The notes under the pieces are model-generated. The model had not been told where the DNA came from. It worked only from the letters and a program-made list of their open reading frames with translations, and made no database searches. A DNA stretch of 64,000 nt, taken from Terriglobales bacterium. GTDB taxonomy: Bacteria > Acidobacteriota > Terriglobia > Terriglobales > Acidobacteriaceae. Numbering within the stretch: position 1 is the first letter of the stretch; each line of letters opens with the position of its first letter. Of this stretch, positions 18,380-52,955 are shown one piece after another. The stretch covers positions 4,958 to 68,957 of the forward strand of contig DASZHW010000156.1 of the NCBI GenBank assembly GCA_035937515.1, read 5' to 3'. The translations under genes and the position numbers were made by a program.

Positions 18380-18442
18380 GTCGTCAGTCGTCGGTCTTCA
18401 GGAATTCGTCGTCGGTCGTTGGCCCTCGGCCGTTGGCCAATA
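18380..18442. repeat. heptamer tandem array, 9 units in exact register (GTCGTCA GTCGTCG GTCTTCA GGAATTC GTCGTCG GTCGTTG GCCCTCG GCCGTTG GCCAATA)
   Basis: Read directly. It begins 1 nt from the rodA start codon and is 51/63 identical to the array at 20580-20642. Confidence 0.9.
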
Positions 18443-18592
18443 CCTTTCCGTTCCTGTCTGCAGCCGGGTTTACTATTCTGGTTCCTCCACCTGTCATCTT
18501 GAGCGGAGTCGAAAGACCCCTACTCCATTAACTCCTGTCGCAGAGTAGCGCCGGCATCCTGCCCGCTGTCTCGAGGGCATCTCGCCCTCGGG

Positions 18593-20572
18593 CTACTGTA
18601 ACCCCGGCGCCGCCGTCGCCAGTGGCAAACGCGCATCCGGTAGATCCAGCAGGAAATGACCTCCGCGTATGGAATCGGCATCCCCATTCGTCGCGTCCCC
18701 GTCCGCGCCGTTCCACACTGCTCCGATATCCACTTTCTGACTGCCACCGGCCATTTTGCTGGGCTGGCGGCGTTGCTTCTCCACGTATGCCTTAATCACC
18801 TGGGCGGCGGTTCGAGCCGCCAGGTATCCGTGCTCGCCTTCCTCCAACAGGGCGCACACCACGATTTCCGGATTGCGCCGGGGCTCGACTCCGGCAAACC
18901 ATCCGTTGTCCTTGAAGTTGGCCTTGCCGGCCGCGCCCAGCTTGGCTTTCAGGGTATTGCTGATGGTCTGGGCGCTGCCGGTTTTGCCGGCAAAATCAAT
19001 GCCCTGCAAGTGCGATAGGGCAGCCGTCCCGCCCGGATTCACCACCCCCGCCATGGCGTCGGTAATCGTCTCCCAATTGGCAGGATCGATCGGAATCCTT
19101 ACCTCATCCGGCACGTTCGACGCCGGCACAATGCCCGGCGGCAAATCGCGCGGATTGGTGACATGCGGCCGCACCAGCAGGCCCCCGCTGGCAATGGCGC
19201 CAATCGCCCGAGCCAACTGGATGGGCGTCGCGGCCACAGCACCCTGCCCGATGCCCACCGAAATCGTCTCTCCCGCGTACCATTTTTGCTTGAAATTGCG
19301 GATCTTCCATTCCTCCGAAGGCATGACTCCGGTGACTTCCTGGGGAAGATCAATCCCGGTTTTTTGTCCCAGGCCAAACGCCATGGCGTATTTCGCGATG
19401 CGCTCGATGCCCAGCTTCTCCGCCAGGGTGTAGAAGAAAACGTCGCAGGACTGATAAATGGCCTTACTGATGTCGGTAATGCCGTGGGTACGGTGCTCGG
19501 CCACGACCCAGCATTTGAAATATCGTCCGTAGAACGACGCGCCTCCGGTGCAATTCACCTTCATGGCCTGCGCAATGCCTTCCTGCAGACCCGCAGTGGC
19601 CATGATGATTTTGAACACCGAACCGGGAGCCAGTTGCGCCTGAATGGCCTTGTTCAACAAGGGATGATCGGCGTCGTTGACCAGCTTCATCCACTCGTCA
19701 TTGGAAATTCGCACCGCAAAATCGTTGGGATTGTAGGTAGGACGGCTCACCAAGGCCAGGATTTCGCCGGTGCGAGGGTCCATGGCCACAATGGCCCCAT
19801 TTCTCCCCTCCAGAGCCTGTTCCGCGGCAATCTGCAAATCAATATCGAGGGTCAGCTTGAGCGCTTTTCCGGGTACCGCCGGCTTCTGGTCCAACTCTCC
19901 GACTTCCTTCCCCTTGCTGTTCACCAGCACCTGGCGGGAACCATTCTTGCCCATCAGGATCGAGTTGTATTCCAGCTCCACCCCTGACTTCCCCACCACG
20001 TCGCCGGGGTTGTAAAGCTCCCATCGGGCCTGGTTCAGCATCTGCTCGCTGACCTCGCCCACGTAGCCTACGAGATGGGCCATGAAACCGTTGCGGGGAT
20101 ACAGCCGCCGGTGGGCCATGATGGTGTCCAGTTCCGGCAGTTCGTTGCGGTGCGATTCGATGAACGCCAGTTCATCCTGGGTGATGTCTTCCTTGAGATA
20201 AATCGGCTGATACTGGGCAGTGCCGGTGAACTTGCGAATCCGCTCCCGCACTTCTTTGGGATCGAGATGCAGGCCCTGCGCGATCAGGTCCGCGTCCACG
20301 GTGAGATCGCGGGTGGAGTCGCGCAGCAGCAGGGCGGTGTAGGAGGGATAGTTGTCCACGATGATCCGGCCATCGCGGTCATAAATCTTGCCGCGGGGCG
20401 CCAGAATGGGAACCTCGCGAGTCTTGTTTTTCTCCGCTAGAGCGGCGTAGAACTCGCTCTGCACCACCTGCAGCCGCCACAGTCCGTAGGCCAGCACCAA
20501 AAAAATGACGAGGATGATGTATTGCACCGCGGTGAGACGGAATCCCGATACTTTTTCGTCGCGGCCAAACAT
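18593..20572 (-). CDS. mrdA: penicillin-binding protein 2 (elongasome transpeptidase)
   Basis: PBP dimerisation and transpeptidase domains (SVFK active-site-like motif, KTGSAQ); sits between mreD and rodA. Confidence 0.92.
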   Translation of the reverse strand: MFGRDEKVSGFRLTAVQYIILVIFLVLAYGLWRLQVVQSEFYAALAEKNKTREVPILAPRGKIYDRDGRIIVDNYPSYTALLLRDSTRDLTVDADLIAQGLHLDPKEVRERIRKFTGTAQYQPIYLKEDITQDELAFIESHRNELPELDTIMAHRRLYPRNGFMAHLVGYVGEVSEQMLNQARWELYNPGDVVGKSGVELEYNSILMGKNGSRQVLVNSKGKEVGELDQKPAVPGKALKLTLDIDLQIAAEQALEGRNGAIVAMDPRTGEILALVSRPTYNPNDFAVRISNDEWMKLVNDADHPLLNKAIQAQLAPGSVFKIIMATAGLQEGIAQAMKVNCTGGASFYGRYFKCWVVAEHRTHGITDISKAIYQSCDVFFYTLAEKLGIERIAKYAMAFGLGQKTGIDLPQEVTGVMPSEEWKIRNFKQKWYAGETISVGIGQGAVAATPIQLARAIGAIASGGLLVRPHVTNPRDLPPGIVPASNVPDEVRIPIDPANWETITDAMAGVVNPGGTAALSHLQGIDFAGKTGSAQTISNTLKAKLGAAGKANFKDNGWFAGVEPRRNPEIVVCALLEEGEHGYLAARTAAQVIKAYVEKQRRQPSKMAGGSQKVDIGAVWNGADGDATNGDADSIRGGHFLLDLPDARLPLATAAPGLQ

Positions 20573-20579
20573 GGGAATA

Positions 20580-20642
20580 GTCGTCGGTCGTCAGTCGTCA
20601 GCTGCTCGTCGTTGGTCGTTGGCCTTTGGTCGTTGGCCAATC
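20580..20642. repeat. heptamer tandem array, 9 units in exact register (GTCGTCG GTCGTCA GTCGTCA GCTGCTC GTCGTTG GTCGTTG GCCTTTG GTCGTTG GCCAATC)
   Basis: Read directly. It begins 7 nt from the mrdA start codon. 20608-20636 is the reverse complement of 20744-20772 at 26/29 positions. Confidence 0.9.
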
Positions 20643-20743
20643 ACGTTACTTTTTATTGTAGACCGGAGGGGAACGGCTTTTGTTGTCATCAACGGTGACG
20701 GAGGGACATCACCGGTTGGATGGATGAGCAGCTGTCGGATTTT

Positions 20744-20772
20744 CCAACGACCAATGACCGACGACCAACGAC
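20744..20772. repeat. inverted partner heptamer array (CCAACGA CCAATGA CCGACGA CCAACGA C)
   Basis: Read directly; ends 5 nt from the mreD stop codon. Confidence 0.9.
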
Positions 20773-20777
20773 GCTGG

Positions 20778-21296
20778 TCACGCTCTCTGCTTGAACCTAT
20801 CCAGCAGGGTAAACAGGATGGCGGCCGTAACTGCGTTCAGCAAGGCGGCTCCCACCTCATGGCTCCAACTCCATTCCACCGCCAGTTTCACCAGCCCGCG
20901 GGCCACGGTGAAGTACACCACCTCGTGGACGGCGAAGAAAAACAGGGTGACCAGGAAGCGGGCGCCGACATTCTCGATGTCCAGCTTCGCGCCCAGAGAA
21001 GACGCCCCAAAACCCACCACCGTCTTGGCAATTCCATAAATCCCGATGGGCTGATGGGTAAGGGAATCCTGCAGCAGGCCGATCAGCGATCCCGTGAGCA
21101 GTCCGGCTACGGGGCTTCTGCGGGCCACGGCGAAGAAAATCACCACCAGCAGTGGCAAGTCAAACAGCGAGAAGAAGTGGAACCGCAACGGCAGAAAGGC
21201 CTGCAGAAAGAGGGCGATGAGCGGAACCGCAATCGACACTGGAAGACTGAACCGGTAAACCTCCACTTGCTCCTGAGATGTGTAGGTGATGGGCAC
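20778..21296 (-). CDS. mreD: rod shape-determining protein MreD
   Basis: 172-aa polytopic membrane protein immediately after mreC; position and size are typical of MreD. Confidence 0.8.
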   Translation of the reverse strand: MPITYTSQEQVEVYRFSLPVSIAVPLIALFLQAFLPLRFHFFSLFDLPLLVVIFFAVARRSPVAGLLTGSLIGLLQDSLTHQPIGIYGIAKTVVGFGASSLGAKLDIENVGARFLVTLFFFAVHEVVYFTVARGLVKLAVEWSWSHEVGAALLNAVTAAILFTLLDRFKQRA

Positions 21297-21297
21297 G

Positions 21298-22434
21298 CTA
21301 TTGTGGTCTCTCCACTCCGGTCGCAGGTTGGCCGGCGGCGGGCGCGGGTTTTTGTGCCGTTTCCGGTTTCACCCGGGCTTGCACACCAGGATTGGCCGAA
21401 TGCGCGGATCCCGCGTCGCTGTTGGCCGCGCTCTTCGCTGTGGCTGCGGCTATGCCTGCGGACGCGGGTGAGGATGGACTGGCCACGGACGACGCGGCCG
21501 CCGGGTTCTTGCTGGCATCGCTTGCCGGCTTGTCCGGAACCGAGGGCAGCCGCTGGGTCAGAATGTCCACCGCCCGCACCCTGCCACTGTCCGACATCAC
21601 CGGAGCGCGGTCCTCTTTCTTGGTGATGACCAGAACCTCTTCCAACTTGCTCAAGTTGGCGCTGGGCCGGATGCGGATATTCATGAACAGGTCCGCGCCC
21701 GGAGAAACCTTGGTGATGGAGCCCACAGTGAGGCCCTTGGGAAAGATCTGATCGCCGCCGCTGGTCACGACCCGCTCTCCCGGCGCCACCTGCTCATCGG
21801 TCATCACTTTTTCCAGGGCCAACTCTCCCGCCGCCGTGCCCCGGACCACGCCTTGCAGGCGCGATCGGTCCAGGATGACGCCCATCCCGCTGGTCTGGTC
21901 GTTAATCAGAAGGACCTGGGAGGTGGAACCATACGCCCGTAACACCTTGCCCACAACTCCGTCGGCGGTGATCACCGCCATGTCCTTTTCAACCCCGTCT
22001 CCCGTGCCCTTGTCGATGTAGATGGACCGGGACTGTTCACTGCCGCTGGAGCCGATCACCTGTGCGGCCACGGTCTTGGCGATGTACTGCTCTTTGAACC
22101 CGAGCAACGCCTGCAAACGGCGGGCCTGCTCAGCATCGTCGCTCAGACGGACCTGCTCCAGCCGCAGGCGCTCGATCTCGAACTTGAGGTCGCGATTCTC
22201 CTGGCGCACGCCGCGCAGGTAAACATAGTCGTGCCAGAGATTGCCCAGACCGCTTTCGCACCAGACAATGGCTTTTTCGAGAGGACTGACTGCGCCCACC
22301 GTCCACAACCGGATCAGGCGGGTCGACTCGTCGTCGCTGCTGCGCTTGACCTGTACCGCCAGCCCCAGCACCTGTACAAACAGGATCGCCGCCAGGATGG
22401 TTACATTGCGATAGCGGCTGATCAGAGTTTCCAT
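21298..22434 (-). CDS. mreC: rod shape-determining protein MreC (with about 100-aa Ala/Ser/Pro-rich C-terminal tail)
   Basis: N-terminal TM, coiled coil (ENRDLKFEIERLRLEQ) and MreC beta-barrel region (GVVGKV, VVTSGGDQIFPKGLTVG). Confidence 0.88.
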   Translation of the reverse strand: METLISRYRNVTILAAILFVQVLGLAVQVKRSSDDESTRLIRLWTVGAVSPLEKAIVWCESGLGNLWHDYVYLRGVRQENRDLKFEIERLRLEQVRLSDDAEQARRLQALLGFKEQYIAKTVAAQVIGSSGSEQSRSIYIDKGTGDGVEKDMAVITADGVVGKVLRAYGSTSQVLLINDQTSGMGVILDRSRLQGVVRGTAAGELALEKVMTDEQVAPGERVVTSGGDQIFPKGLTVGSITKVSPGADLFMNIRIRPSANLSKLEEVLVITKKEDRAPVMSDSGRVRAVDILTQRLPSVPDKPASDASKNPAAASSVASPSSPASAGIAAATAKSAANSDAGSAHSANPGVQARVKPETAQKPAPAAGQPATGVERPQ

Positions 22435-22443
22435 TGAAAAACA

Positions 22444-22479
22444 GTTTCGGGTTTCTGGTTTCTGGTTTCTGGTTTCTAG
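22444..22479. repeat. heptamer tandem array GTTTCGG GTTTCTG x3 GTTTCTA
   Basis: Read directly; ends 9 nt from the mreC start codon. Confidence 0.9.
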
Positions 22480-22547
22480 ACGCCGGCAGTTCCATGGATT
22501 GTTCGGGCACGGGACGGGCTAGGATGCCCGCCCTCCACTAACCCACT

Positions 22548-22575
22548 GGAAACTAGAAACCGGAAACCAGAAACT
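22548..22575. repeat. inverted partner array GGAAACT AGAAACC GGAAACC AGAAACT
   Basis: Read directly; overlaps the mreB stop codon (TAG on minus = cta 22574-22576). Confidence 0.9.
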
Positions 22576-23635
22576 ATTCTATTGAGATCTTGCGCAGCAA
22601 CTTGAAATCGCTCAGCATCTTGCCCGTGCCCAGCACCACACTGCACAGCGGGTCGTCGGCGATCGAGACCGGCAATCCGGTTTCCTCGCGGATGCGCTTG
22701 TCCAGGTTCTTCAACAACGCCCCACCGCCGGTGAGCACGATGCCGCGGTCGCTGATATCGGCGGAAAGCTCGGGAGGGGTGCGCTCCAGAGCCACGCGAA
22801 TGGCATTCATGATGGTCGAAACGCACTCGCTCAGAGCTTCGCGGATTTCGCTGTCGTCGACGGTGATGGTCTTGGGCACGCCTTCGATCAGGTTGCGGCC
22901 CTTGATTTCCATGGTCAGAGGCTTTTCCAGCGGATACGCCGAGCCAATTTCCATCTTGATCTGCTCCGCGGTGCGCTCGCCCACCAGCAGATTGTATTTC
23001 CGCTTCAGGTAGTTCATCACCGCTTCGTCCATCTGGTTGCCGGCCATGCGCACGGAACGGGAATACACGATGCCGCTCAGCGAGATGACCGCGATATCGG
23101 TGGTGCCTCCGCCGATATCCACCACCATATTGCCGCTGGGTTCGGTGATGGGAAGTCCCGCGCCGATGGCGGCCACCATGGCCTGCTCCACCAGGTACAC
23201 CTCGCTGGCTTTGGCGCGATAGGCCGAGTCCATGACCGCCCGCTTTTCTACCTGGGTAATTTCCGAAGGCACGCCGATGACGATCCGCGGATGCACCAGC
23301 ATCTTGCGATTGTGCGCCTTCTGGATGAAGTAATTCAGCATCTTCTCGGTGACTTTGAAATCGGCAATCACGCCATCTTTCATGGGCTTGATGGCCACGA
23401 TATTGCCCGGGGTCCGGCCCAGCATCTCTTTGGCCTCTTTGCCCACGGCTTCGACTTCACCGGTGTTCTTGTTGATGGCCACGATGGAGGGCTCGTTCAC
23501 CACAATGCCCTTGCCCCGCGCGTACACCAGCGTGTTGGCGGTTCCCAGGTCAATGGCAAGATCGCTGGAAAAAATGCTGAACAGCGATCTCAGGTTGTGC
23601 AGGCGCGTCGAAGAATGGAATCCGTTAGATGACAT
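22574..23635 (-). CDS. mreB: rod shape-determining actin homolog MreB
   Basis: DLGTANTLVY, VVDIGGGTTD and IVLTGGGALL motifs; full length. Confidence 0.95.
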   Translation of the reverse strand: MSSNGFHSSTRLHNLRSLFSIFSSDLAIDLGTANTLVYARGKGIVVNEPSIVAINKNTGEVEAVGKEAKEMLGRTPGNIVAIKPMKDGVIADFKVTEKMLNYFIQKAHNRKMLVHPRIVIGVPSEITQVEKRAVMDSAYRAKASEVYLVEQAMVAAIGAGLPITEPSGNMVVDIGGGTTDIAVISLSGIVYSRSVRMAGNQMDEAVMNYLKRKYNLLVGERTAEQIKMEIGSAYPLEKPLTMEIKGRNLIEGVPKTITVDDSEIREALSECVSTIMNAIRVALERTPPELSADISDRGIVLTGGGALLKNLDKRIREETGLPVSIADDPLCSVVLGTGKMLSDFKLLRKISIE

Positions 23636-23796
23636 ACGCGATTTAGCTCTCTCGAACCGCTGTCATTGCCGGGCGTGCCCGGTTGCTTCCGTGCGGGTGG
23701 GGAACCGTGCCCTTAATTCTATGGGATAAACCCCGCTTCGCCCTCAAACCAAAGTTCCAGCACCTCGGGTGTTCCCGCCCAAGGCCAGGCGTTACC

Positions 23797-25092
23797 CTAC
23801 TGGATCACGATCTTTTTCTGTAACGTGTTGACCCCGCCCTTGGCATTCTGAGCCGTAATGGTGATCACACTCTCCCCCGGCGGCAGTGGAGGCATGAAAT
23901 AGTGAAAACTGCCATCGACACCGACTACCGGCACTTCCCGGCCGTTGACCATCACCCGCGCCCCCGCCTCGGTCTTTCCGGTCAACTCGATCACGCGGCC
24001 ATGCTGCATGAATGGATCCAGTTCCAGGTTGATGGCAGCGGTTTCCTTGCCCTTGGGAATGATGGTGAAGCGGTTCTTCTGGCTCTCCACCGACTCCTTC
24101 TCATTGGCGTCGTAGGACTGCACTACCCAGTAATACGCTCCTTCGCTCAATCCTGAAACAATTACGTCCGCGGTGTTGACCTTGCGATCCACAACCGTGG
24201 AAGAAAAGTAGGGGTTGTGCGAAATCCGCAGCCGATATCCCACCGCGTTGGCCATCGCCGTCCAGGAGAACTCCACCGGCTTGGGAGTGCCCGAAGTGAA
24301 CACCGGCATCATGTTGGCCGGCGAAATCGGTGTGGGCGGCCCGATCTCCTTCAACTTGGCCATGCGCGGCGATTGCGATTGGAAAGCCACCTTCTCCCAG
24401 TCCGCCAGGTGCACGACCTCGCCGTTCCGTGAAATCTCGCTCGACCCTTTCTTAACCAGAATCTCGTGCTGATCGGCTTTGGGATCGTTGTGCACCATGG
24501 CCGCGCTATCCGGTGCCAGGGAGGCGGTGGCCCCAGCCACGATCACTTGCGATTTCGATCCCTGGACATAGGTAGCGGTCGATAGATCCACGGTGCCCGT
24601 ACTGACGGCTACGGCTACATTGGTCTGCTGCTGGTCGTTGGCCGAATTCTCCTCAATCACGATCAGCGAATCCTGCTTCACCGTGTAGTTGGTCCCGTCA
24701 TTAAAGACGATCTTGGCCATGCCTTCCGAGCCGGTCTGAACCACGTCGCCTTTTTCCAGGGGCACGTTGTAATCAGCCGTCACCCAACTGTTGCTGCTCG
24801 CTTTCTTGACCCGCACCGTCCCATCCAGGGCGGTGATATGGGCCTGTTGTGAGTTGGTCGTGCCGGTCTTGGTGGTTCCCCCCGCCCCGGCAATGATCTC
24901 CAGCAACCGGCCCCCCAGGCTGCTGACCGATTTGACCCCCTTCTGGGTGAACTGGGGAAAGGCGAAATTCATCCCCACGCAAAACAGAATCAAGGCGAAC
25001 AATATGGCCAGGGCCACACTGCGATAGGTGACCGTCTTCCACGCAACATGGATTCCTGGTTTGCTACTCGAAGACACAAAGGCCCCGGACAC
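23797..25092 (-). CDS. FecR-domain membrane-anchored protein with C-terminal Ig/Fn3-like domains
   Basis: TM helix; FecR-like segment (GTVRVKKASSNSW...GDVVQTGSEGMAKIVFNDGT); beta-rich C-terminus. GTG start, uncertain. Confidence 0.6.
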   Translation of the reverse strand: MSGAFVSSSSKPGIHVAWKTVTYRSVALAILFALILFCVGMNFAFPQFTQKGVKSVSSLGGRLLEIIAGAGGTTKTGTTNSQQAHITALDGTVRVKKASSNSWVTADYNVPLEKGDVVQTGSEGMAKIVFNDGTNYTVKQDSLIVIEENSANDQQQTNVAVAVSTGTVDLSTATYVQGSKSQVIVAGATASLAPDSAAMVHNDPKADQHEILVKKGSSEISRNGEVVHLADWEKVAFQSQSPRMAKLKEIGPPTPISPANMMPVFTSGTPKPVEFSWTAMANAVGYRLRISHNPYFSSTVVDRKVNTADVIVSGLSEGAYYWVVQSYDANEKESVESQKNRFTIIPKGKETAAINLELDPFMQHGRVIELTGKTEAGARVMVNGREVPVVGVDGSFHYFMPPLPPGESVITITAQNAKGGVNTLQKKIVIQ

Positions 25093-25289
25093 CAGTCAAA
25101 CCCCAAAGAATATGGGATAAACGGAAGCGTAGCACAAGCATAACTCCCAGGGCAGGGGTGATTACCTTGGGTCGCACTCCCGGCGGCCATGTCCCGTGGT
25201 GCGCCGCGCGGCCCGCGCTTGCCGCACCCTCAGCCCCACCTGTAGCATAGGGGTTCACGGCTTTTCTTCCTTCCACCCAGGAGGCACTT

Positions 25290-26828
25290 ATGGCAACCGA
25301 CACTCTGCCCAGCCCAGCCATGCTCGGCAACAGCACTAACACCAAGGTTTATAAGAACTTCATCGACGGCGAGTGGGTTGAATCCTCGACCGGACAGACG
25401 TTCGAAAATCGCAATCCCGCCGACACCCGCGACGTAGTCGGGATCTTCCAGAAATCCGCCAAAGCCGACGTTGACGCCGCCGTCGAGGCCGCCCGCCAGG
25501 CCTTCGCCAAATGGCGCCTGGTGCCGGCTCCGCGACGCGCTGAAATCGTCTATCGCGCCGCCGAAATGCTGTTCGAGCGCAAGGAGGAGTGCGCCCGCGA
25601 CATGACCCGCGAAATGGGCAAGATTCTCAAGGAAACCCGAGGCGACACTCAGGAAGCCATCGACACCGCCTATTACATGGCCGGTGAAGGCCGCCGCATG
25701 TTCGGCCCTACCACGCCTTCGGAACTGCCCAATAAGTTCGCCATGGCGGTGCGGACTCCCATCGGCGTCTGCGGCATGATCACTCCGTGGAATTTCCCCA
25801 TGGCGATTCCGTCCTGGAAGATTCTTCCCGCCATCGTGTGCGGCAATACCTGCGTGATCAAGCCCGCCCAGGACACTCCGCTTTCCACCTTCAACCTGGT
25901 GCGTACCCTGGCCGATGCCGGCGTGCCCAAGGGCGTGATCAACATCGTGACCGGATTCGGTTCCCAGGTAGGCGGTCCGCTGATGGAGCATCCCGAAGTC
26001 CGCGCCATCTCGCTGACCGGCTCTACCGAGGTCGGACGCATCGTGGGCACGACCGCAGCCAAGAGTTTCAAACACTGTTCGCTCGAGCTGGGCGGTAAGA
26101 ATCCCATGATTGTGCTCGACGACGCCAACCTGGATCTGGCCATCGAAGGCGGCCTGTGGGGCGGCTTCGGCACCACCGGCCAGCGCTGCACCGCCACCAG
26201 CCGCATCATCGTGCAGAAGGGCGTCTATGTCGAGTTCGTGGAGCGCTATGTAGATCGCGCCCGGCGGCTCCGGGTGGGCAACGGCATCGATGAAAACACC
26301 GAGATGGGCCCGGCCATCAACGAAAGCCAGCTCAAGACCGACCTCAGCTATGTTGAAATCGGACGGGCCGAGGGCGCCAAACTGAAATGCGGCGGCAACC
26401 GGCTGGATCAGGGCGAATATCAGCATGGCTACTTTATGGAGCCCACCGTGTTCGCCGATGTTGATCCCAAAATGCGCATCGCCCAGGAAGAAATTTTCGG
26501 CCCCGTGGTTTCCATCATCCCTTGCGAAGATCTGGAAGACGCCATTGCCATCGCCAACGGCATCGAGTACGGACTGTCCTCGGCGCTTTATACGCGGGAT
26601 GTCAACAAGGCTTTCGTGGCCATGCGCGACCTGCATGCCGGAATTACCTACATCAATGCGCCGACGATTGGCGCAGAAGTCCATCTCCCCTTCGGCGGGG
26701 TGAAGGCCACGGGTAACGGACACCGGGAAGGCGGCATCGGCGCGATCGATTTCTATACGGAATGGAAGTCGGTGTACGTCGATTACTCGGACACGCTGCA
26801 GAAGGCGCAGATCGATCGGGGAGAGTAG
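25290..26828 (+). CDS. NAD(P)-dependent aldehyde dehydrogenase
   Basis: ALDH family motifs ([15 protein letters not shown], catalytic GQRCTA, EEIFGPV); GGAGG SD. Confidence 0.9.
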
Positions 26829-26834
26829 CTGAGC

Positions 26835-26869
26835 GTTCGCCTTTGGCCGTTGGCCTTTGGTCGTTGGCC
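26835..26869. repeat. heptamer tandem array GTTCGCC TTTGGCC GTTGGCC TTTGGTC GTTGGCC
   Basis: Read directly; starts 6 nt after the ALDH stop codon. Confidence 0.85.
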
Positions 26870-26896
26870 GCGCAAAGTGCCGAATCCAATCAGGCT

Positions 26897-26950
26897 CTTC
26901 TTTGCGTCCTTTGCGGTAGTTCTCTGCGATCTTTGCGATTAAAAGGTCTT
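26897..26950. repeat. CTTTGCG-type short-period repeat block (CTTCTTTGCGTCCTTTGCGGTAGTTCTCTGCGATCTTTGCGATTAAAAGG)
   Basis: Collinear similarity to the left arm of the 61104-61203 hairpin. An upstream GCGCAAAG (26870-26877) can pair with CTTTGCGt. Confidence 0.7.
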
Positions 26951-26967
26951 GCTTCAGGCGGAACCTC

Positions 26968-28185: not shown

Positions 28186-28283
28186 CTTGCCATCGTGATG
28201 CGGGTGCGCTGATACGGAGCGGGCATTTTTCCGCAAGCGGCGAGGAAATCCCCCAAGTCCATTTTCGGCTGGCAAAGTACTGT

Positions 28284-32701: not shown

Positions 32702-32730
32702 AAGGACTGCCTCCGAGATGATGACTTCTG

Positions 32731-34463: not shown

Positions 34464-34515
34464 TTGGGGCCGAAACTTGGGGCCGAAGCTTGGGGCCGAA
34501 GCTTGGAGCCGAAGC
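34464..34515. repeat. 13-nt tandem repeat x4 (TTGGGGCCGAAAC TTGGGGCCGAAGC TTGGGGCCGAAGC TTGGAGCCGAAGC)
   Basis: Read directly; lies in the 5-prime leader of the antiporter gene, 19-70 nt upstream of its ATG. Confidence 0.9.
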
Positions 34516-42345: not shown

Positions 42346-42349
42346 GGCG

Positions 42350-43924: not shown

Positions 43925-43980
43925 ACTCTGGAAAAGTCTACGCGGGCGGGGGCGCGTGCGCCACATGGCCGCGTCTGCAG

Positions 43981-44730: not shown

Positions 44731-44996
44731 CGCGTTTGTTTGGAGTCGTCCCGGAGGCCTCGCTCATCCAATCGGTTTGGCAAATCTTTACAAAGCTTTA
44801 CCGATTGCCGCGGCGTGACGCAAACCCGGGCTGGCGCGTCATTTATACTATTGCATTCACAACCCGACCCGGGACCAAAAGTAAGGACGGCGCCCAGCAC
44901 AAAAATGAAACCTGGGGCGCGCAAAATGCGTATCAACGCTTGATTTCCAGAAGCCTAGGCCATCTTCGCGATCAGCTTGTGCAGGGAGAGAATCGA

Positions 44997-47066: not shown

Positions 47067-47077
47067 TCGGAACGGAG

Positions 47078-47137
47078 TCACGCAGAGGCCGAACCAGTCC
47101 TGACCGAAGGAGGAGAAGGACATCTGCCTCTGCGTGA
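47078..47137. repeat. perfect 12-bp inverted repeat TCACGCAGAGGC-N36-GCCTCTGCGTGA
   Basis: Read directly, 12 nt after the TolC-like stop; no U tract. Confidence 0.8.
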
Positions 47138-47186
47138 ATCCCGGCGGCCATTTCGCCGCGGCCTCCCTCCGGTTTATGCTCTCCGC

Positions 47187-48020
47187 GTGAACCTTTCCGT
47201 CGTCCTGATCACGTACAACGAGCAGTCCAATCTGGCGCGAACGCTGGCAAGCGTGCAGTCGCTGGTGCGCGATGGCGCCGGAGAAATCATCGTCGTAGAT
47301 TCGGCTTCGACCGATCGCACGGTAGAGATCGCGAAGTCTTTCGGCGCCCGGGTTTTCGTCGAGGACTGGAAAGGCTACGCGGCACAGAAAAATTCAGCCA
47401 TCGAGAAGGCATCTGGAGAATGGATTCTGAGCCTGGATGCGGATGAAGAGCTTAGTCACGGCGCCGTGCATGCGATCGGGCAGATCCTCGGACCCGACGC
47501 ACAGAAGTACGCAACCGTCTCCGCCGTCTGGTTTGCCCGCAAGAATCATTTCCTCGGGCGCTGGATCCGGCACGGCGGATTTTATCCCGACCGCAAGCTT
47601 CGACTTTTCCGGCGCGGCCAGGCAAGCTTCTCCGCGCGCGCAGTTCATGAAACAGTCTCCACTAGCGGACCCACCGCAGTGGCCGAACATGACTTCAATC
47701 TGGGCCAGAGCATCGCCCTGATCCACCACTCCTACCCCACACTCTCCGACTACCTTGACCACATGAACCGCTATTCCTCGCTGGGTGCAGAAATGGCGGT
47801 GGCCGATGGACGTGCCGGATTCAGTGTCATCAACATCGCCGTTCGCCCCTGGCTGACGTTTTTCTATAACTATTTTCTGCGGCTGGGTTTTCTCGACGGC
47901 CGGGAAGGACTGCTGCTGCACCTGTATCACGCGGTGTACGTTTCCTGGAAATATGCCAAGGCGTGGGAGCTGACGAAAACAAGAGCAGATTCCTCGCGGA
48001 CTAAAGTCCACTCGGAATGA
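47187..48020 (+). CDS. family 2 glycosyltransferase
   Basis: LSVVLITYNE, VVDSASTD and SLDADE (DxD) motifs; GTG start. Confidence 0.85.
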   Translation: MNLSVVLITYNEQSNLARTLASVQSLVRDGAGEIIVVDSASTDRTVEIAKSFGARVFVEDWKGYAAQKNSAIEKASGEWILSLDADEELSHGAVHAIGQILGPDAQKYATVSAVWFARKNHFLGRWIRHGGFYPDRKLRLFRRGQASFSARAVHETVSTSGPTAVAEHDFNLGQSIALIHHSYPTLSDYLDHMNRYSSLGAEMAVADGRAGFSVINIAVRPWLTFFYNYFLRLGFLDGREGLLLHLYHAVYVSWKYAKAWELTKTRADSSRTKVHSE

Positions 48021-48044
48021 CAAACTGGAATTGAGAACCGAAAA

Positions 48045-48398
48045 TTAACCCGCTCGGGTTCCGTCCGGGACCGGGCTTTCCGGCACGGCCAGCACGGGAC
48101 GCACGCCGTCGACATAGCCGACGTCGAACAGCATTCCTTCCGACAGCACACCCCGCATCTTGCGCGGCTCCAGATTGACGACGAACAGCGCCTGCCTGCC
48201 TTCGATCTCCCGTGGGTCGGCACGCTCCGTCTTCATGCCGGCGACGATGGTGCGCTCGTGATCGCCAAAGCTCACTCGCAACTGGACCAGTTTGTCGGAA
48301 TTGGGCACATCGGCCACAGCGACGATTGTCCCAACGCGAATGTCAATCTGATTGAGAACTTCCACGGAAACCACGGGCTTGAGGGGTGCGGGAGTCAT
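48045..48398 (-). CDS. tRNA-binding domain protein (CsaA/EMAP-like)
   Basis: IDIRVGTIV...SDKLVQL...VVNLEPRKMRGVLSEGML signature. ATG 48398 preferred; the GTG at 48425 lies inside a repeat arm. Confidence 0.8.
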   Translation of the reverse strand: MTPAPLKPVVSVEVLNQIDIRVGTIVAVADVPNSDKLVQLRVSFGDHERTIVAGMKTERADPREIEGRQALFVVNLEPRKMRGVLSEGMLFDVGYVDGVRPVLAVPESPVPDGTRAG

Positions 48399-48404
48399 GC
48401 TTCT

Positions 48405-48489
48405 GAAGATAACCACAGAGGACACTGGGGCACAGAGAAAAGTTCGCAGATGATCTTCCTCAGCGCTCTCTCTGTCCTCTGCGGTTATG
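48405..48489. repeat. CCTCTGYGG-type hairpin element (GATAACCACAGAGGACA ... TGTCCTCTGCGGTTATG)
   Basis: Arms complementary at 15/17. Fills the spacer between the P-loop gene stop (inside the right arm) and the csaA-like start. Confidence 0.8.
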
Positions 48490-49093
48490 CCTTTCTCAGC
48501 TTTTCTCTCACAAATTCAACGATCTCGGGCGTGACGTATTCCGGCGGCGAAATGCGAAACAGGGGACATCCCGCTGCTGGCTTCAGGGAAACCTCCTGCC
48601 AGGCCGGTTTCTGCCCCTGGTTTTCGTGCAGGATGACCGCATCCGCCTGGTCGAGAAATTCCTGGGCTGACTTCTTGAAGTCGGCGGTGGCAGGATCAAG
48701 GACGCTGAGATAGAGATCGGGCCGCAGGAACTTGAGAATGCTGTTCGACTCCAGGATCGCGTTCTCCGCCTCGTCCAGCCGACGACGAATTGCGGGCATG
48801 GCTTCGGCCAGACGTCCCTGCTCGCTGCGCACCCACCAGGCGCGCGCTGCTCCCGCAACCAGAAAACGTGACGTGTCCGATTCCCCGGAGCGGTCTTTCT
48901 CCTCAGCGATCCCCCAACTGTGATCGCCGGTGGCGCACAGGCAGGGCTTTCCATCTCTCGAGCAGACGCCGTGTCCATACTGCGTGACCTTGAGCGCGGT
49001 CCAGTTGTGTTCCGGCAGAGCCGCGATCAGGCCGGCGACGACGCTGGTCTTGCCCACGCTGCGCGAGTGCCCGCCAATGATGATGATGGCCAT
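48485..49093 (-). CDS. BioD/CobQ-like P-loop protein (function unknown)
   Basis: MAIIIIGGHSRSVGKTSVVAGL resembles the dethiobiotin-synthetase-type P-loop. Start set at an internal ATG. Confidence 0.5.
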   Translation of the reverse strand: MAIIIIGGHSRSVGKTSVVAGLIAALPEHNWTALKVTQYGHGVCSRDGKPCLCATGDHSWGIAEEKDRSGESDTSRFLVAGAARAWWVRSEQGRLAEAMPAIRRRLDEAENAILESNSILKFLRPDLYLSVLDPATADFKKSAQEFLDQADAVILHENQGQKPAWQEVSLKPAAGCPLFRISPPEYVTPEIVEFVREKLRKA

Positions 49094-49097
49094 GGGA

Positions 49098-49146
49098 ATT
49101 CGTCTTCGGCCCTTGGTCGTTGGTCGTTGGCACTTCGCCGTTTCGT
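49098..49146. repeat. heptamer array (GTCTTCG GCCCTTG GTCGTTG GTCGTTG GCACTTC GCCGTTT)
   Basis: Read directly; starts 8 nt from the P-loop gene start codon. Confidence 0.85.
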
Positions 49147-49160
49147 AAATGCCTTCAGCA

Positions 49161-49199
49161 TTGGTTTTGGCCGACGGCCAATGACCAAGAACCAACGAC
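49161..49199. repeat. inverted partner heptamer array (..GCCGACG GCCAATG ACCAAGA ACCAACG AC)
   Basis: Read directly; abuts the lpxD stop codon (cta 49199-49201). Confidence 0.85.
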
Positions 49200-50206
49200 T
49201 ATTTCTTAGCCAGACGCGCCAGAACTGCCAGCTGCTTCAGATATTCACGCACCGGACGTGCCGGAGTTCCCCAGAATGCCACGCCCTTGCCGCGCAGCAC
49301 CTTGTTGGGGAGAACGCCGCCTTGTCCGCCCAGCATTACGCCTTCTTCGATGCGAGCATGCTCGCCAATACCCACCTGGCCGCCCAGCACTACGTTCTTC
49401 TCGATCACAATGCCGCCGGACAGTCCGGTCTGGGCCGCGATCACCACATCTTCCCCAATCTGACAGTTGTGTCCGATGTGCACCAGGTTATCGATCTTGG
49501 TGCCGCGCCCGATGCGAGTCACCTCCAGGGCGCCGCGGTCAATGGTGGTATTCGCGCCGATCTCCACATCGTCTCCAATTTCGAGACGGCCGACCTGGGG
49601 AAACTTTTCGTAGTGTCCCGATGCCGGGTCGCGAACATAGCCGAAGCCGTCGCTGCCCAGCACCGCTCCGGCATGAACGATCACGCGGTTGCCGAGGCGG
49701 GCGCCAGGGTAGATCGTGACGTTCGGGTAGAGCTGACAGTCGCGTCCGATGCTGGCGTGGGCGCCGACTACCCCGCCTGCGCCGATCCGGGTGCGATCAC
49801 CGATTTCCGCCTTCTCCCCGATGGCCGCTCGTTCCGCCACCATCACGTCTTTGCCCAGCCGGGCCGACCCATGGACCACTGCGCTGGAGTGGGTTCCAGG
49901 CTGGGTCCCGGCTCCGGAATTCAGAAGCCGCGCCGCGCGCGCGAATGCCAGCTTGGGATGCTGCGCGATGAGCAGCGGCTTGGCGCTGGCCTTGCTCCCG
50001 GTGAACTCCGCCCGGGCAAATTCCCCGACGATCACGGCAGCGGCGCGTGATCGCAATGCGGAGCCCAAGTGCCTTATGTCCTCGACAAAGACCAGGTCGC
50101 CAGTCCCTGCCAGCGCGATGCTGGCGATTCCGCTGACCTCCACGGCTCCATCTCCGACCACTTGCGCCTGCACCGATTCGGCAACCGTCCTGAGTGACCG
50201 CTTCAT
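49199..50206 (-). CDS. lpxD: UDP-3-O-acylglucosamine N-acyltransferase
   Basis: LpxD N-terminal domain followed by a long hexapeptide-repeat LbH region; 335 aa. Confidence 0.92.
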   Translation of the reverse strand: MKRSLRTVAESVQAQVVGDGAVEVSGIASIALAGTGDLVFVEDIRHLGSALRSRAAAVIVGEFARAEFTGSKASAKPLLIAQHPKLAFARAARLLNSGAGTQPGTHSSAVVHGSARLGKDVMVAERAAIGEKAEIGDRTRIGAGGVVGAHASIGRDCQLYPNVTIYPGARLGNRVIVHAGAVLGSDGFGYVRDPASGHYEKFPQVGRLEIGDDVEIGANTTIDRGALEVTRIGRGTKIDNLVHIGHNCQIGEDVVIAAQTGLSGGIVIEKNVVLGGQVGIGEHARIEEGVMLGGQGGVLPNKVLRGKGVAFWGTPARPVREYLKQLAVLARLAKK

Positions 50207-50278
50207 GGCATCTTTGTATACGTTTGGCAGAGGAAAGAAAAGCCGGAGGAAGTCTGACAGCGTCCCAAAACTCGAGGA

Positions 50279-50331
50279 CCACGAAGTACACGAAGGTACA
50301 AATCTCCGAAGTCCCTTCGTGCGCCTTGGTG
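50279..50331. repeat. CACGAAGG-type hairpin (CCACGAAGTACACGAAGG ... CCCTTCGTGCGCCTTGGTG)
   Basis: Complementary arms read directly, upstream of lpxD. Confidence 0.75.
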
Positions 50332-50379
50332 TGCTTTCGAGTGCAGTCCAGAGGCCTGCCGGGGGACTAAAATGCTGGC

Positions 50380-50523
50380 ATGGAGAAGAAAATCTTCTGG
50401 GTCAGCTTTACCGTGCTGGGGCTGGCCGCAGATTTTATTCTGCCCATCTGGTGGGCACTGGGCGCAACCATCCCCATTGCTTATGCCAGCTGGTGGATTG
50501 CCTACCGCAGCGACTGGTTTTAA
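50380..50523 (+). CDS. possible 47-aa Trp-rich two-helix membrane peptide (not in ORF track)
   Basis: MEKKIFWVSFTVLGLAADFILPIWWALGATIPIAYASWWIAYRSDWF. Third-position GC about 70% by my count; weak SD. Confidence 0.3.
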   Translation: MEKKIFWVSFTVLGLAADFILPIWWALGATIPIAYASWWIAYRSDWF

Positions 50524-50551
50524 GACGCAGGCCGAGTCCCGCGGCGTCATG

Positions 50552-50578
50552 AAAAAAAGCCCCGATGCCAATCGGGGC
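50552..50578 (-). terminator. intrinsic terminator of the SYLF-domain gene
   Basis: Minus strand GCCCCGAT-tggc-ATCGGGGC followed by TTTTTTT, 20 nt after the stop. Confidence 0.75.
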
Positions 50579-50597
50579 CTGGAAACAGGAACGCGAA

Positions 50598-51293
50598 CTA
50601 CTTACTCGCCGCCGTCTTGGCCCACTTGGCCAACACATTCAGGAACGGATAGGCGTTGGGAGGAGCGGGAATAGTGCCGGTCAACGAGGTCTTGAAGGGC
50701 ACCATGCGGCCGTAGAACTGGCGGGTTGCGTCTTTGTCCTGGTCAATGGCGGCCCCGCTGAGCTCCAGTCCAGCGAACAGTCCACGCGCTCGGGAATAGC
50801 TGAGCACCTGCGCCTTCAGTTTCCAGTCAGTATCGGCGGCGGCGTGACGGCCCACCGGCCCGGCGGCCACGCTGGCATCGGCCCCCAGTTTGAACTGGCT
50901 GCTCAGCAGGTTCTTCATGCCATTGTCGTTCATGATCAGCATCACCAGGTCTACCGCCTGGGCGCCAATCTGCAGACCGAAACTGCCGCCCTTGATGCTG
51001 AAGAACGCGGGTGCGCTCCAGCCCTTCGCAGTGCGGCAGCTGGCGACACCGCGTCCAAAACGCGCGCCCACAATGAATCCGCCCTTGAGCATGGTGGGCA
51101 CCACGGCAACACACTGGGCTGACCCCAGGACTTCTTCCGGAATGCCCTGGTCGGGAGCTGCCTCGATTTCATCCAGCACCGTACCGGCGGCTTTGATGCG
51201 GTCGTCGGCTTTGGTTGTGTCCTCGTCATCATCCTTAGCCCACACCGGGAAAGCAAAACAGAGAACCAAACACAGAACGAGAAGTCTTTTCAT
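50598..51293 (-). CDS. SYLF (Ysc84/DUF500) lipid-binding domain protein, secreted
   Basis: Signal peptide; GGFIVGARFGRGV...FSIKGGSFGLQIGAQ pattern typical of the SYLF domain. Confidence 0.72.
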   Translation of the reverse strand: MKRLLVLCLVLCFAFPVWAKDDDEDTTKADDRIKAAGTVLDEIEAAPDQGIPEEVLGSAQCVAVVPTMLKGGFIVGARFGRGVASCRTAKGWSAPAFFSIKGGSFGLQIGAQAVDLVMLIMNDNGMKNLLSSQFKLGADASVAAGPVGRHAAADTDWKLKAQVLSYSRARGLFAGLELSGAAIDQDKDATRQFYGRMVPFKTSLTGTIPAPPNAYPFLNVLAKWAKTAASK

Positions 51294-51447
51294 GTTCTTC
51301 CTTGCTTTCGGGAGTTTCCAGAACCTACTTCCAGCTTAACACAGTGATTTTAGCGGATTTAGACAGATGCGGGGGGCGTCAGACGGAATTTTAGTGGGGC
51401 CCACAAGGTCAGAAAAACGTCTTGTCCTGGATCATTTTGCTGAAGGC

Positions 51448-51477
51448 AAAAAAAATCGGGGTCAGCCGCGGCGACCC
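51448..51477 (-). terminator. intrinsic terminator downstream of the LuxR-type regulator
   Basis: Minus strand GGGTCGCCGCGGCTGACCCC hairpin followed by a T8 run. Confidence 0.6.
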
Positions 51478-51602
51478 TAAAATCTCCGCTTCCAACCCCG
51501 TCTCCCAGGTTCTGTGGTAGGTGAAGCGAGTATGCGGCGGAGCGAGCGAAGCGACAAGATTACCTAGGTCATTGGCCCAAAGTAACTATGTCTCGAGCCG
51601 GC

Positions 51603-52277
51603 TTATTTCGCCGTGACCAGCGAGTGAGTAATGGCATGGACGGAGAGTGCGATGCGGTTCTGCACTCCTACCTTGCGCATCAACTTGGCCACGTGGGCTT
51701 TGACAGTGCGCTCCTCAATCCCGAGCGCGGAGCCGATTTCCTTGTTGGACCGTCCGGCCACCAGCATTTCCAGAACTTCCTTCTCCCGGTCGGTAAAGGT
51801 GACCCGGCCGGCCGGAAAGATGCGGCCCGGAGCGGAACTTACGCGCTCGATGAACATGGAGAGCACGCGGCGCGGGGCCCAGACCGAGCCTTGATTCACT
51901 ACCCGGATGGCCTGCACAAACTCGGCAGGAGAAGCGGCTTCATCCACATAGCCCTTGGCCCCTGAAGCCACGGCCTTCAAAATGGTTTCCTCGTCCATGC
52001 CCGAACCTGTCACAATGATGCGCAGGTCGGGACGGCTGGCCTTGAGGCTGGCCATGAGATCAAAGAGGTTCTGCCCGTTGCGGTTGCCCAGCAGCACCAG
52101 ATCAACGTTCGGCAGGGTGGCGATATCGGGAAGAGAGGCGGCAATCAGCTCGAAGTCGGTCTCCGAGTCGAACAAGGCGCGAAATCCAACGAAACGTAGC
52201 GGATCGCTTTCCACGACTGCAAGACGAATGACCGGTTTTTTTGCTGGTGACGCCTTCATGGCAGCTGCTGCCTTCAT
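51603..52277 (-). CDS. NarL/FixJ-type response regulator with degenerate (pseudo) receiver domain
   Basis: LuxR HTH (FTDREKEVLEMLVAGRSNKEIGSALGIEERTVKAHV). Receiver-like N-terminus has VVESDP in place of DD and DLVLLG in place of the phospho-acceptor D. Confidence 0.85.
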   Translation of the reverse strand: MKAAAAMKASPAKKPVIRLAVVESDPLRFVGFRALFDSETDFELIAASLPDIATLPNVDLVLLGNRNGQNLFDLMASLKASRPDLRIIVTGSGMDEETILKAVASGAKGYVDEAASPAEFVQAIRVVNQGSVWAPRRVLSMFIERVSSAPGRIFPAGRVTFTDREKEVLEMLVAGRSNKEIGSALGIEERTVKAHVAKLMRKVGVQNRIALSVHAITHSLVTAK

Positions 52278-52423
52278 AGGGTTCCCTGTTTGATCGCGAT
52301 GCCTTTTGGTTTCGAAACTGGCCTAGCATAACTGATTTGCCCACGAGCGGAACCATCTTGCAACGGTTTGGCGATTACGCCGGTAACGTGGTAAGCATCA
52401 GGAAAAAGGACAAATAACTGCAC

Positions 52424-52870
52424 ATGAAACCACATGGAAACATCGTGCGAGGGGTGGTGGCGATACTGCTGCTGAGCGGGCTCGCCGCCTGGACTCAGAC
52501 TACCTATCAACCTAAATTCCGGGGCGATCCGGCGCGCTCGGACTCGGAAGCAGCCGCCCTGGGCTACATGCGCACCGTCATTCGCGCGCAGAAACTCTAC
52601 AAGAAAAAGAATGACAAGTACGCCAGTTCACTAGCGGACCTGGTCCATACCGGGTCGTTCACCAAGCGCATGGTCAATCCCGAGCGTGGCGACTACTCCG
52701 TGGGCTTTCGTCCACACAAAGAAAAAGGAAAGGACGAAGACGGATACCAGTTGACCCTCACTCCCAAGCAACTGGACGCAGATCACCGCTCCTTCTATGC
52801 CGAAGAGGACGGTGTGATCCACGCCGATGACCAGGGCCCCGCGACTGACAAGTCGCCGGTGGTGAAGTAA
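52424..52870 (+). CDS. hypothetical secreted protein (pilin-like globular segment)
   Basis: Signal peptide. SEAAALGYMRTVIRAQKLY resembles the post-helix segment of type IV pilin-like proteins, but there is no prepilin motif. Confidence 0.5.
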   Translation: MKPHGNIVRGVVAILLLSGLAAWTQTTYQPKFRGDPARSDSEAAALGYMRTVIRAQKLYKKKNDKYASSLADLVHTGSFTKRMVNPERGDYSVGFRPHKEKGKDEDGYQLTLTPKQLDADHRSFYAEEDGVIHADDQGPATDKSPVVK

Positions 52871-52875
52871 ATGGA

Positions 52876-52955
52876 GTGGCTAGTGGTCAGTGAGCAGTCG
52901 CCCGTGACTGGTTACTGCTCACTCATCACTGACCACTGATTACTGTCCACTGATC
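52876..52955. repeat. heptamer array, 11 units (GTGGCTA GTGGTCA GTGAGCA GTCGCCC GTGACTG GTTACTG CTCACTC ATCACTG ACCACTG ATTACTG TCCACTG), internally palindromic
   Basis: Read directly, between convergent genes. The last units encode the final codons and stop of the 52940..53650 gene. Confidence 0.9.

Follow-up and report, generated by a model that had tools for sequence, protein, structure and literature searches.

What do tandem arrays of seven-nucleotide units do between the genes of an essential bacterial operon? The question is raised by a 64,000-nucleotide stretch of 60% GC DNA from a Terriglobales bacterium (contig DASZHW010000156.1; hereafter the window), in which six loci carry arrays of heptads, among them spacers of the minus-strand cell-shape operon mreB-mreC-mreD-pbp2-rodA. 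The arrays were compared with those in about 40 related genomes of a soil acidobacteria lineage that carry the same essential operon. The reading that we prefer, with a probability of roughly 45%, is that the arrays are cis-acting mRNA modules, consisting of a leader that is independent of a Shine-Dalgarno (SD) sequence and a complementary anti-leader, which would couple the translation of neighbouring genes or control the processing of their transcript.

The window was scanned for matches at lag 7 with a threshold of at least 16 matches in 21 positions, and 200 first-order Markov simulations served as the null. Seven period-7 arrays were observed as compared to a simulated mean of 0.10 and a maximum of 2, and at a threshold of 0.8 there were five arrays at period 7 and zero at periods 4-6, 8 and 10-12. 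All six loci that a preliminary description of this DNA had listed were recovered at their positions by Tandem Repeats Finder and the lag-7 scan, with 3-6 units per sub-array. The units had been described as exact copies in register and as forming whole spacers, and neither was the case: adjacent units match at 4-7 of 7 bases, and the arms are separated by loops free of the repeat, which are 14-100 nt long in the window and reach about 400 nt in the genomes of relatives. The three unit types named at first increased to at least six across related loci, including CGACTGA (= CTGACGA), CCAACGA, GAAACYR, GAGGTCC and CCACTGA, none of them being TAACTGA, and a weak CCACTAC pair suspected at about 14120-14150 (14117-14150) has period 14 and not 7. 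The proposed kinship of the copies was borne out by a four-heptad module, TTGG-CCAACGA-CCAAGGG-CCAACGA-CCAACGA-CG, that is repeated at several non-orthologous sites. The segments 18380-18442 and 20580-20642 each consist of three CTGACGA-type units, a register-keeping 7-nt junction and four CCAACGA-type units, and the identity of 51/63 reported between them is exact, in that register only. The shared junction GACGA(A/C)..TTCC beside an ATG was likewise found, at 18401-18412, 20573-20582 and 49094-49105. Curated RNA families (Rfam 15) gave no match at the gathering threshold anywhere in the window.

The nearest relatives of MreC are labelled Terriglobales, and the closest genomes are all metagenome-assembled genomes (MAGs) of uncultured Terriglobia/Terriglobales (Acidobacteriota), in agreement with the earlier view that a cell-shape operon (Pfam) of a non-cyanobacterial host was at hand. 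A scan taking one genome per species gave 38 Terriglobia-type MAG loci with MreC identities of 69-87% and one Nitrospirota outgroup, and four JGI metagenome contigs match the window at 99.9% identity. The MreB protein is 100% identical to that of the window in nearly all of the approximately 40 genomes (loci L005-L046), the corresponding values being 69-87% for MreC and 66-95% for PBP2, and genomes agree with one another at 57-100% of the four-fold degenerate sites of mreB (mean 73%).

Across the related loci and the window (about 800 kb) 125 arrays were found at period 7 as compared to 0-16 at other periods between 4 and 16, excluding the multiple 14. Enrichment between genes, one of the checks proposed at the outset, was evident: of the 170 arrays in 777 kb of related loci, 149 fell in DNA called non-coding, though 84% of the DNA was coding according to the same crude open reading frame (ORF) calls, and the 20 of 21 "coding" arrays that were re-inspected all lay in known spacers under spurious ORFs. 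The arrays of the window are also intergenic, as had been stated, except that 52876-52955 runs with its last 16 nt into minus-strand ORF 52940-53650, covering the last five codons at its 3' end. Among metagenome loci one genuine coding array was found (L102, about 2141-2183), a CCAACGA array in a coding linker just before a GTPase P-loop (...VAIIGHPNVGKS), read as PTTNDQGPTTD; the CCAACGA unit has no stop codon in any frame and can therefore invade disordered linkers.

Within the operon the arrays keep to particular spacer ends. In the mreB-mreC spacer (39 loci, 128-172 nt) 25 loci had an array at the stop end and 27 had one at the start end; the two figures were 31 and 30 for the mreD-pbp2 spacer (38 loci) and 0 and 26 for the pbp2-rodA spacer (35 loci). 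No array was found in the rodA-rne spacer (about 380 nt) of 25 loci or in the mre spacers of the Nitrospirota outgroup, and 150 kb of a megaplasmid of Granulicella tundricola (same order, 61% GC) contained no period-7 array. The trait is thus not general to Terriglobales, the comparison sequence here being a plasmid, and its absence from both the Nitrospirota outgroup and the 61% GC megaplasmid indicates that it is lineage-specific and not a property of base composition.

The arrays follow a rule of position and polarity. In co-directional spacers, read along the sense strand of the neighbouring genes, T-rich units (GUUUCYR, GUCGUUG, CAGUCGU, GCUUCUA) make up the arrays located -4 to +10 nt from a stop codon, and A-rich units (YRGAAAC, CCAACGA, CUGACGA) make up those that end 0-35 nt ahead of a start codon. 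Among 98 arrays outside the mre operon, many of them from independent metagenome contigs, the 3' end of the A-rich strand pointed toward the nearest gene boundary in 76 as compared to 12, and the layout stop-arm-loop-arm-start was seen again at L047, L051, L137 and L157. About one third of all arrays are single. The metagenome loci outside the operon were found with the pattern CCAACGACCAACGAC; about half of the hits among those listed represent an unrelated dispersed element of about 43% GC, and the hits at 55-61% GC are independent loci, in which the rule holds as well. Many of the metagenome matches sit at contig ends. Dozens of the contigs of about 43% GC (L049, L053, L055-L056, L058-L061, L063-L064 and others) carry the longer element as ...gtgcacgcgcgtgacaaccaa-(CCAACGA)n-gtcacgacacagcctatctcaataagcgcctcttttactaa..., and these embedded arrays belong to an unrelated organism and element. 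In four further contigs of GC 0.53-0.69 (L050, L054, L078, L103) CCAACGA-type and other heptamer arrays stand directly upstream of start codons; downstream of one of these spacers an ORF begins MVTGLIGKKVGMTQ, read as a putative rplC, with presumably rpsJ upstream. Given that start-proximal arrays occur in metagenome contigs of such different GC, they are not confined to Terriglobia.

Genes behind arrays lack an SD sequence, which the preliminary description had missed, as it had the unpaired state of arrays such as those before rodA; its observation of the arrays stood. It had named three outcomes that would speak for neutral repeats (arrays as common in genes as between them, folds no better than those of shuffled sequences, and random presence at orthologous loci with no co-variation of the arms); each was looked for and none was observed. 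A 4-mer SD core was present upstream of mreC, pbp2 and rodA in fractions of 0.03, 0.05 and 0.11 of genomes, and the starts of these array-preceded genes showed almost no predicted anti-SD pairing, whereas a GGAG core was present upstream of mreD in 0.93 and of rne in 1.00 of genomes.

The genes of the operon and its neighbour (Pfam) are located in the window as follows.

22574-23635, minus strand: mreB
21298-22434, minus strand: mreC
20778-21296, minus strand: mreD
18593-20572, minus strand: pbp2 (PBP2-type transpeptidase)
17293-18378, minus strand: rodA
14179-16911, minus strand: RNase E/G gene (rne)

The arrays and the loops between them, written in mRNA sense, are the following.

22544-22577, minus strand: stop-proximal T-rich arm of the mreB-mreC spacer, UAG UUUCUGG UUUCCGG UUUCUAG UUUCCAG
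22485-22543, minus strand: loop of the mreB-mreC spacer, which holds the inner hairpin GGAGGGCGGGC AUCCUA GCCCGUCC
22435-22484, minus strand: start-proximal A-rich arm of the mreB-mreC spacer, CUAGAAA CCAGAAA CCAGAAA CCAGAAA CCCGAAA CUG
20743-20780, minus strand: stop-proximal arm of the mreD-pbp2 spacer, the mreD stop UGA (20778-20780) followed by GUCGUUG GUCGUCG GUCAUUG GUCGUUG
20643-20742, minus strand: loop of the mreD-pbp2 spacer, with CGUCAC and TACAAT (20655-20660)
20573-20642, minus strand: start-proximal composite array before pbp2, with four CCAACGA-type units (20608-20642), the junction GAGCAGC, three CUGACGA-type units (20580-20600), CUAUUCCC and the AUG
18379-18442, minus strand: single start-proximal composite array before rodA, with four CCAACGR-type units, the junction GAAUUCC, UGAAGAC CGACGAC UGACGAC, C and the AUG (18378-18376)
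26829-26871, plus strand: single stop-proximal T-rich array, GCCUUUG GCCGUUG GCCUUUG GUCGUUG GCC, 6 nt after the stop of an aldehyde dehydrogenase gene (26826-26828)
49147-49201, minus strand: stop-proximal arm after lpxD, the stop UAG (49199-49201) leading directly into UCGUUGG UUCUUGG UCAUUGG CCGUCGG and then a short loop
49094-49146, minus strand: start-proximal arm of the lpxD spacer, CCAACGA CCAACGA CCAAGGG CCGAAGA CGAAUUCCC
52871-52955, no strand assigned: inverted pair between convergent ORFs, GUGGCUA GUGGUCA GUGAGCA ... CUCACUC AUCACUG ACCACUG AUUACUG UCCACUG
14111-14178, minus strand: GCUUCUN units in degenerate form, with two 14-nt repeats, following the stop codon of the RNase E/G gene, where relatives have clear (GCUUCUA)4-5 arrays

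The mreB stop codon (22574-22576) is itself the opening triplet of the stop-proximal array, and the A-rich arm at the other end of the same spacer stops 9 nt short of the SD-less mreC AUG (22434-22432). The pbp2 AUG (20572-20570) also has no SD sequence upstream, and the lpxD-spacer arm runs up to the AUG (49093-49091) of a 202-aa ORF without a Pfam match. Two short ORFs of 37 and 41 aa annotated by JGI lie in or beside the spacers on either side of rodA (L001:13938-14051 and 15163-15288, corresponding to about 18384-18497 and 17147-17272 of the window). The 37-aa ORF runs on through the rodA array, has no conserved counterpart in the closest relative and was not retained as a real gene; both are probably gene-calling artefacts on repeat DNA. 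A different tandem array, four copies of the 13-nt unit TTGGGGCCGAAGC with 94% matches (34464-34515), is present in the 5' leader of a minus-strand Na+/H+ exchanger gene, 19 nt upstream of its start (34445), followed by an SD-like stretch AAAGGGGAG. In L019 the mreD-pbp2 spacer (471 nt; L019:11687-12158) contains an insertion of a further dispersed palindrome, GTCATCCTGAGCG...CGCTCAGGATGAC, and the same repeat adjoins a heptamer array in metagenome contig L062 at about 9760-9830.

That the inverted pairs could form a stem reaching from one gene's stop codon to the next gene's start codon had been suggested at the outset, and the predicted folds support this. Compared to shuffled sequences the pairs are far more stable, the folding z scores in the window being -5.4 for mreB-mreC, -6.2 for mreD-pbp2, -4.2 for the lpxD spacer and -3.8 for the convergent spacer. 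Where a spacer is paired, the duplex predicted between its arms comprises 42-44 pairs (median); the median position of its first pair is 2 nt inside the stop codon, and the median distance from its end to the following AUG is 2-6 nt. Arm-arm duplex energies were -38.5 and -54.3 kcal/mol as compared to -21 and -27 for shuffled arms. In the pbp2-rodA spacer, with its single array, z was -2.4 and the array stem was absent, the two ends of this spacer being unpaired in every genome examined. A terminator-like hairpin and T-run lie at 14093-14110, beyond the rne array, and this was the only such site nearby: no terminator-like site or U-run coincides with any array pair.

Comparison of orthologous spacers, also proposed earlier, showed that the arrays are kept and that the two arms change together. 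The mreB-mreC arms have pairwise identities of 0.83-0.87 as compared to 0.73 at the four-fold sites of mreB, and the inner hairpin of its loop, GGAGGACGGGCGTCCTCGCCCGTC (about 22508-22533, minus strand; columns 93-118 of alignment A4), is nearly invariant in 28 relatives with the same loop type. Seven relatives, including the closest one (L044, 97% identical), have an unrelated mreB-mreC loop. In the mreD-pbp2 spacer three arm classes were distinguished, GTCGTTG, CAGTCGT and GGACCTC, and the 5' and 3' arms were of the same class in 36 of 38 genomes; the two exceptions are a hybrid (L041) and one genome below the counting threshold that is CAGTC-like on inspection (L032). The classes are only 1-2 substitutions apart per unit (GGTCGTT, GGTCGTC, GGACGTC), at least 11 changes of class are required on the protein tree, and nested outer and inner stems were seen in L017 and L028. 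The loop motifs of this spacer are homologous throughout the arm classes, CGTCAC and TACAAT (the former about 34 nt upstream of the latter) being kept in all three classes among approximately 38 genomes. These motifs may represent a candidate internal promoter for pbp2-rodA; a scan with the sigma-70 consensus found no -35 partner for the TACAAT at 20655-20660, leaving a canonical promoter unsupported.

From these observations we infer that the operon is co-transcribed and that its arms fold in vivo, with consequences for initiation that may be pictured as follows. The A/C-rich array, typically four heptads (CCAACGA-CCAAGGG-CCAACGA-CCAACGA) and often additional CUGACGA units, would form the last 30-70 nt before the start and would substitute for the SD sequence as a G-poor, weakly structured leader. 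The G/U-rich array beginning at the upstream stop or a few nucleotides away would be the anti-leader, and the two would pair in a helix of about 30-45 bp, with the stop codon on one side of its base, the nucleotides preceding the AUG on the other side, and other conserved elements held in the loop. On a polycistronic transcript such a helix would mask the downstream initiation region, and a ribosome terminating at the upstream stop would unwind the first 12-15 bp and thereby expose the leader beside it, so that mreC would be coupled to the translation of mreB, and pbp2 to that of mreD, across 140-210 nt. The helix might in addition be a processing or stability element. The 7-nt period would most likely arise from a slippage bias to heptanucleotides, possibly reinforced by RNA chaperones with an oligonucleotide-binding (OB) fold, each presumably occupying one heptamer.

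Several observations weigh against this reading. The order T-rich arm...A-rich arm of a pair is unchanged by reverse complementation, so that the transcribed strand is not identified by it, and the polarity rule was for this reason dropped as proof of function in the transcript; only single arrays and the start/stop context bear on which strand is functional. The predicted stem beats its shuffled controls, as had been expected, but this does not place its action in the transcript, since the antisense strand folds as well or better: the minimum free energy of the whole mreD-pbp2 spacer is -104.5 kcal/mol for the antisense and -95.3 kcal/mol for the sense strand, and the sense strand folded better in only 3 of 37 comparisons. 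A G-U signature of selection on the sense RNA was rejected on the same grounds. Compensatory changes, which had been another proposed check, were seen in 0 of 22 pairs of the mreB-mreC stem, an uninformative outcome because its GUUUC/GAAAC cores never vary. Many arrays are single (before rodA, after the aldehyde dehydrogenase gene and after rne) and pairing therefore cannot be the whole story; moreover, pairs also occur between convergent genes, where coupling is impossible. Finally, the mreB-mreC loop types are incongruent with the protein tree, which makes exchange of whole spacers a real alternative to repeated compensatory evolution. The switches of arm class may be due to a few spacer alleles moved by recombination, and the co-variation of the arms could result from homogenisation or template switching between them at the DNA level.

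A doubtful rival is one in which the arrays are DNA-level by-products without function, born by slippage, copied between arms by hairpin template switching or spread as palindromes, and tolerated in spacers. Heptanucleotides are the commonest long simple repeats in most prokaryotes, a prevalence that has been put down to slippage of the polymerase (Mrazek 2007, cited in PMC4679880 and PMC4692102). The symmetry of the pairs, the antisense folds, the spacer alleles incongruent with the protein tree, the fast turnover of arms between close relatives (window versus L044) and the array inside the L102 coding linker would all be expected from functionless DNA, matches at contig ends are usual for dispersed repeats, and the four-heptad module at non-orthologous sites resembles a copied element. 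However, by-products would hardly abut stop and start codons within a few nucleotides and with a fixed polarity of 76 versus 12, and the SD-less genes behind arrays, in an operon whose other genes are not SD-less, are difficult to explain, since a gene with junk inserted in front of it would still require a signal for initiation. The arrays have also persisted in the same three spacers at 73% four-fold identity while the 380-nt rodA-rne spacer is empty, and a slippage bias is insufficient alone given that 150 kb of the Granulicella megaplasmid, which is matched in order and GC content, is free of arrays. Copy-number polymorphism is absent as well: the four metagenome copies of 99.9% identity, a small sample, differ at single positions and by one 1-nt insertion but by no 7-nt indel, and in this small population sample the arrays did not behave as phase-variation (contingency) repeats.

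It is rather unlikely that binding of a protein is primary, the arrays being multimeric sites for a single-strand-binding OB-fold protein (of the cold-shock-domain or S1 type) with a 7-nt footprint, one molecule per heptad, that would hold leaders open or melt the helix and make expression chaperone-dependent. Such binding would explain why the period is strictly 7 nt, why four heptads are the favoured length and why single arrays exist. The T-rich units GUCUUUG, GCCUUUG and GUCGUUG resemble GTCTTTG/T, which we take to be the preference of CspB. In heptamer direct repeats each heptamer is bound by a single CspB molecule (Sachs 2012; Morgan 2007; both cited in PMC4679880), and NNACTGA units (TAACTGA, CCACTGA, CGACTGA, CAACTGA) are shared by Beggiatoaceae, cyanobacteria and the present arrays. 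On the other hand, the units differ considerably from spacer to spacer (GAAACYR, CCAACGA, CTGACGA, GAGGUCC), and conservation at a given site concerns the match between complementary arms and not one sequence, which fits a structure better than a sequence-specific protein. A structure could also serve without coupling, and it is conceivable, although very unlikely, that the paired arrays of about 30-45 bp are substrates of RNase III or barriers to 3'-5' exonucleases that segment the mre transcript and set the MreB : MreCD : PBP2/RodA ratio. RNase III needs roughly 20 bp, a length exceeded by the predicted helices, which flank the boundaries between cistrons exactly; a role in 3'-end protection would suit the pairs seen between convergent genes or behind terminal ones, and no U-run follows any pair, so that these are not intrinsic terminators. 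In Haemophilus an RNase III-targeted 5'-UTR element has been linked to a repeat tract (PMC12721329). The single arrays, the SD-less starts and the 7-nt period are left unexplained by RNase III or stability, and mRNA modules for leader and anti-leader remain the reading that we prefer.

Among known elements, the closest are the short tandemly repeated repetitive (STRR) elements of heterocyst-forming cyanobacteria, which likewise consist of tandem 7-nt units, with several families per genome, intergenic and dispersed. The comparison had been made before and was apt, the likeness being closer than claimed: units printed for Nostoc PCC 7120, ccactga/ctactga and ttgtcag (= CTGACAA), are present here too, and for an STRR hairpin between hupS and hupL a role in transcript stability or translational coupling has been suggested (PMC2670836). 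In contrast to STRRs, the host here is a member of Terriglobia (Acidobacteriota) with 60% GC and not a heterocyst-forming cyanobacterium, the dominant units are GC-richer (CCAACGA, CTGACGA, GAGGTCC, GAAACYR), and the rule of T-rich arrays at stops and A-rich arrays at starts holds across approximately 40 genomes, no such rule having been found described for STRRs. TAACTGA repeats, known from marine Beggiatoaceae, some cyanobacteria and Bacteroidetes, lie a few nucleotides upstream of starts, including those of essential genes, and apparently replace the SD sequence (MacGregor 2015, PMC4679880); a translational role and OB-fold binding proteins were proposed for them (PMC4679880). The present arrays are similar in that heptamer direct repeats stand 0-35 nt before starts in place of an SD sequence, and CGACTGA differs from TAACTGA at two positions. 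They differ in that inverted stop-to-start pairs are common and several unrelated units are used, whereas in the BOGUAY genome 169 TAACTGA sets are direct and only one is inverted (PMC4679880).

Intergenic GGGAATC (Xanthomonas) and GGGGAYT (Nostoc) heptamers also occur between the same genes in relatives, with variable length and sequence and occasionally inverted (Rehm 2015, PMC4692102). Those repeats are G-rich and form G-quadruplexes, which were ruled out for the units here, as these have no G-runs and are predicted to pair as duplexes. Repetitive extragenic palindromic (REP) sequences, bacterial interspersed mosaic elements (BIMEs) and CGTC/GTAG-tagged palindromes are comparable in being dispersed, intergenic and imperfect, often after stops and in operons, with proposed roles in mRNA stability (PMC3733652). 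A REP is a single stem-loop of 20-40 nt with an unpaired tetranucleotide tag, associated for the GTAG type with a tyrosine transposase, and membership in this group fails on anatomy, since the arms here are tandem arrays of 28-45 nt located 14 to about 400 nt apart and CGTC is inside the paired repeat. In terms of mechanism, coupling by an inhibitory mRNA structure that is opened by the upstream ribosome is established in phage MS2 and several E. coli operons. The sequestering of a downstream initiation region by pairing with the end of the upstream cistron would be the same; the differences are that the partners are repeat arrays, that stop and start are 140-210 nt apart, and that the coupling here is a prediction.

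A literature search found no description of such arrays for Acidobacteria, and searches with exact array sequences gave nothing relevant. The arrays are the acidobacterial counterpart of STRRs and the same kind of element as the STRR, TAACTGA and Xanthomonas/Nostoc heptamers, and no new category is called for; new here are the host lineage, the quantified positional rule, and the evidence from SD-less genes and co-varying arms in approximately 40 genomes. A wider extension, which we regard as unlikely, would be that tandem heptads are a general programmable device for SD-independent translation across phyla, in which an A/C-rich leader recruits ribosomes or OB-fold chaperones and a complementary array at the upstream stop makes initiation dependent on termination. 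If true, it would give a common function to STRR, TAACTGA and related repeats, which have been unexplained since 1990, and would explain why NNACTGA/CCAACGA-type units are found in cyanobacteria, Beggiatoaceae, Bacteroidetes-like and acidobacterial DNA.

In practical terms these arrays break short-read assemblies and mislead gene callers, as seen from the 37- and 41-aa JGI ORFs and from long spurious antisense ORFs produced by the crude caller. More generally, heptanucleotides are the most common of the long simple repeats of prokaryotes, and STRRs have been without an established function for more than three decades. The present lineage offers unusually clean comparative material for this problem, and yields testable predictions on coupling, on the complementarity of the arms and on the 7-nt period.

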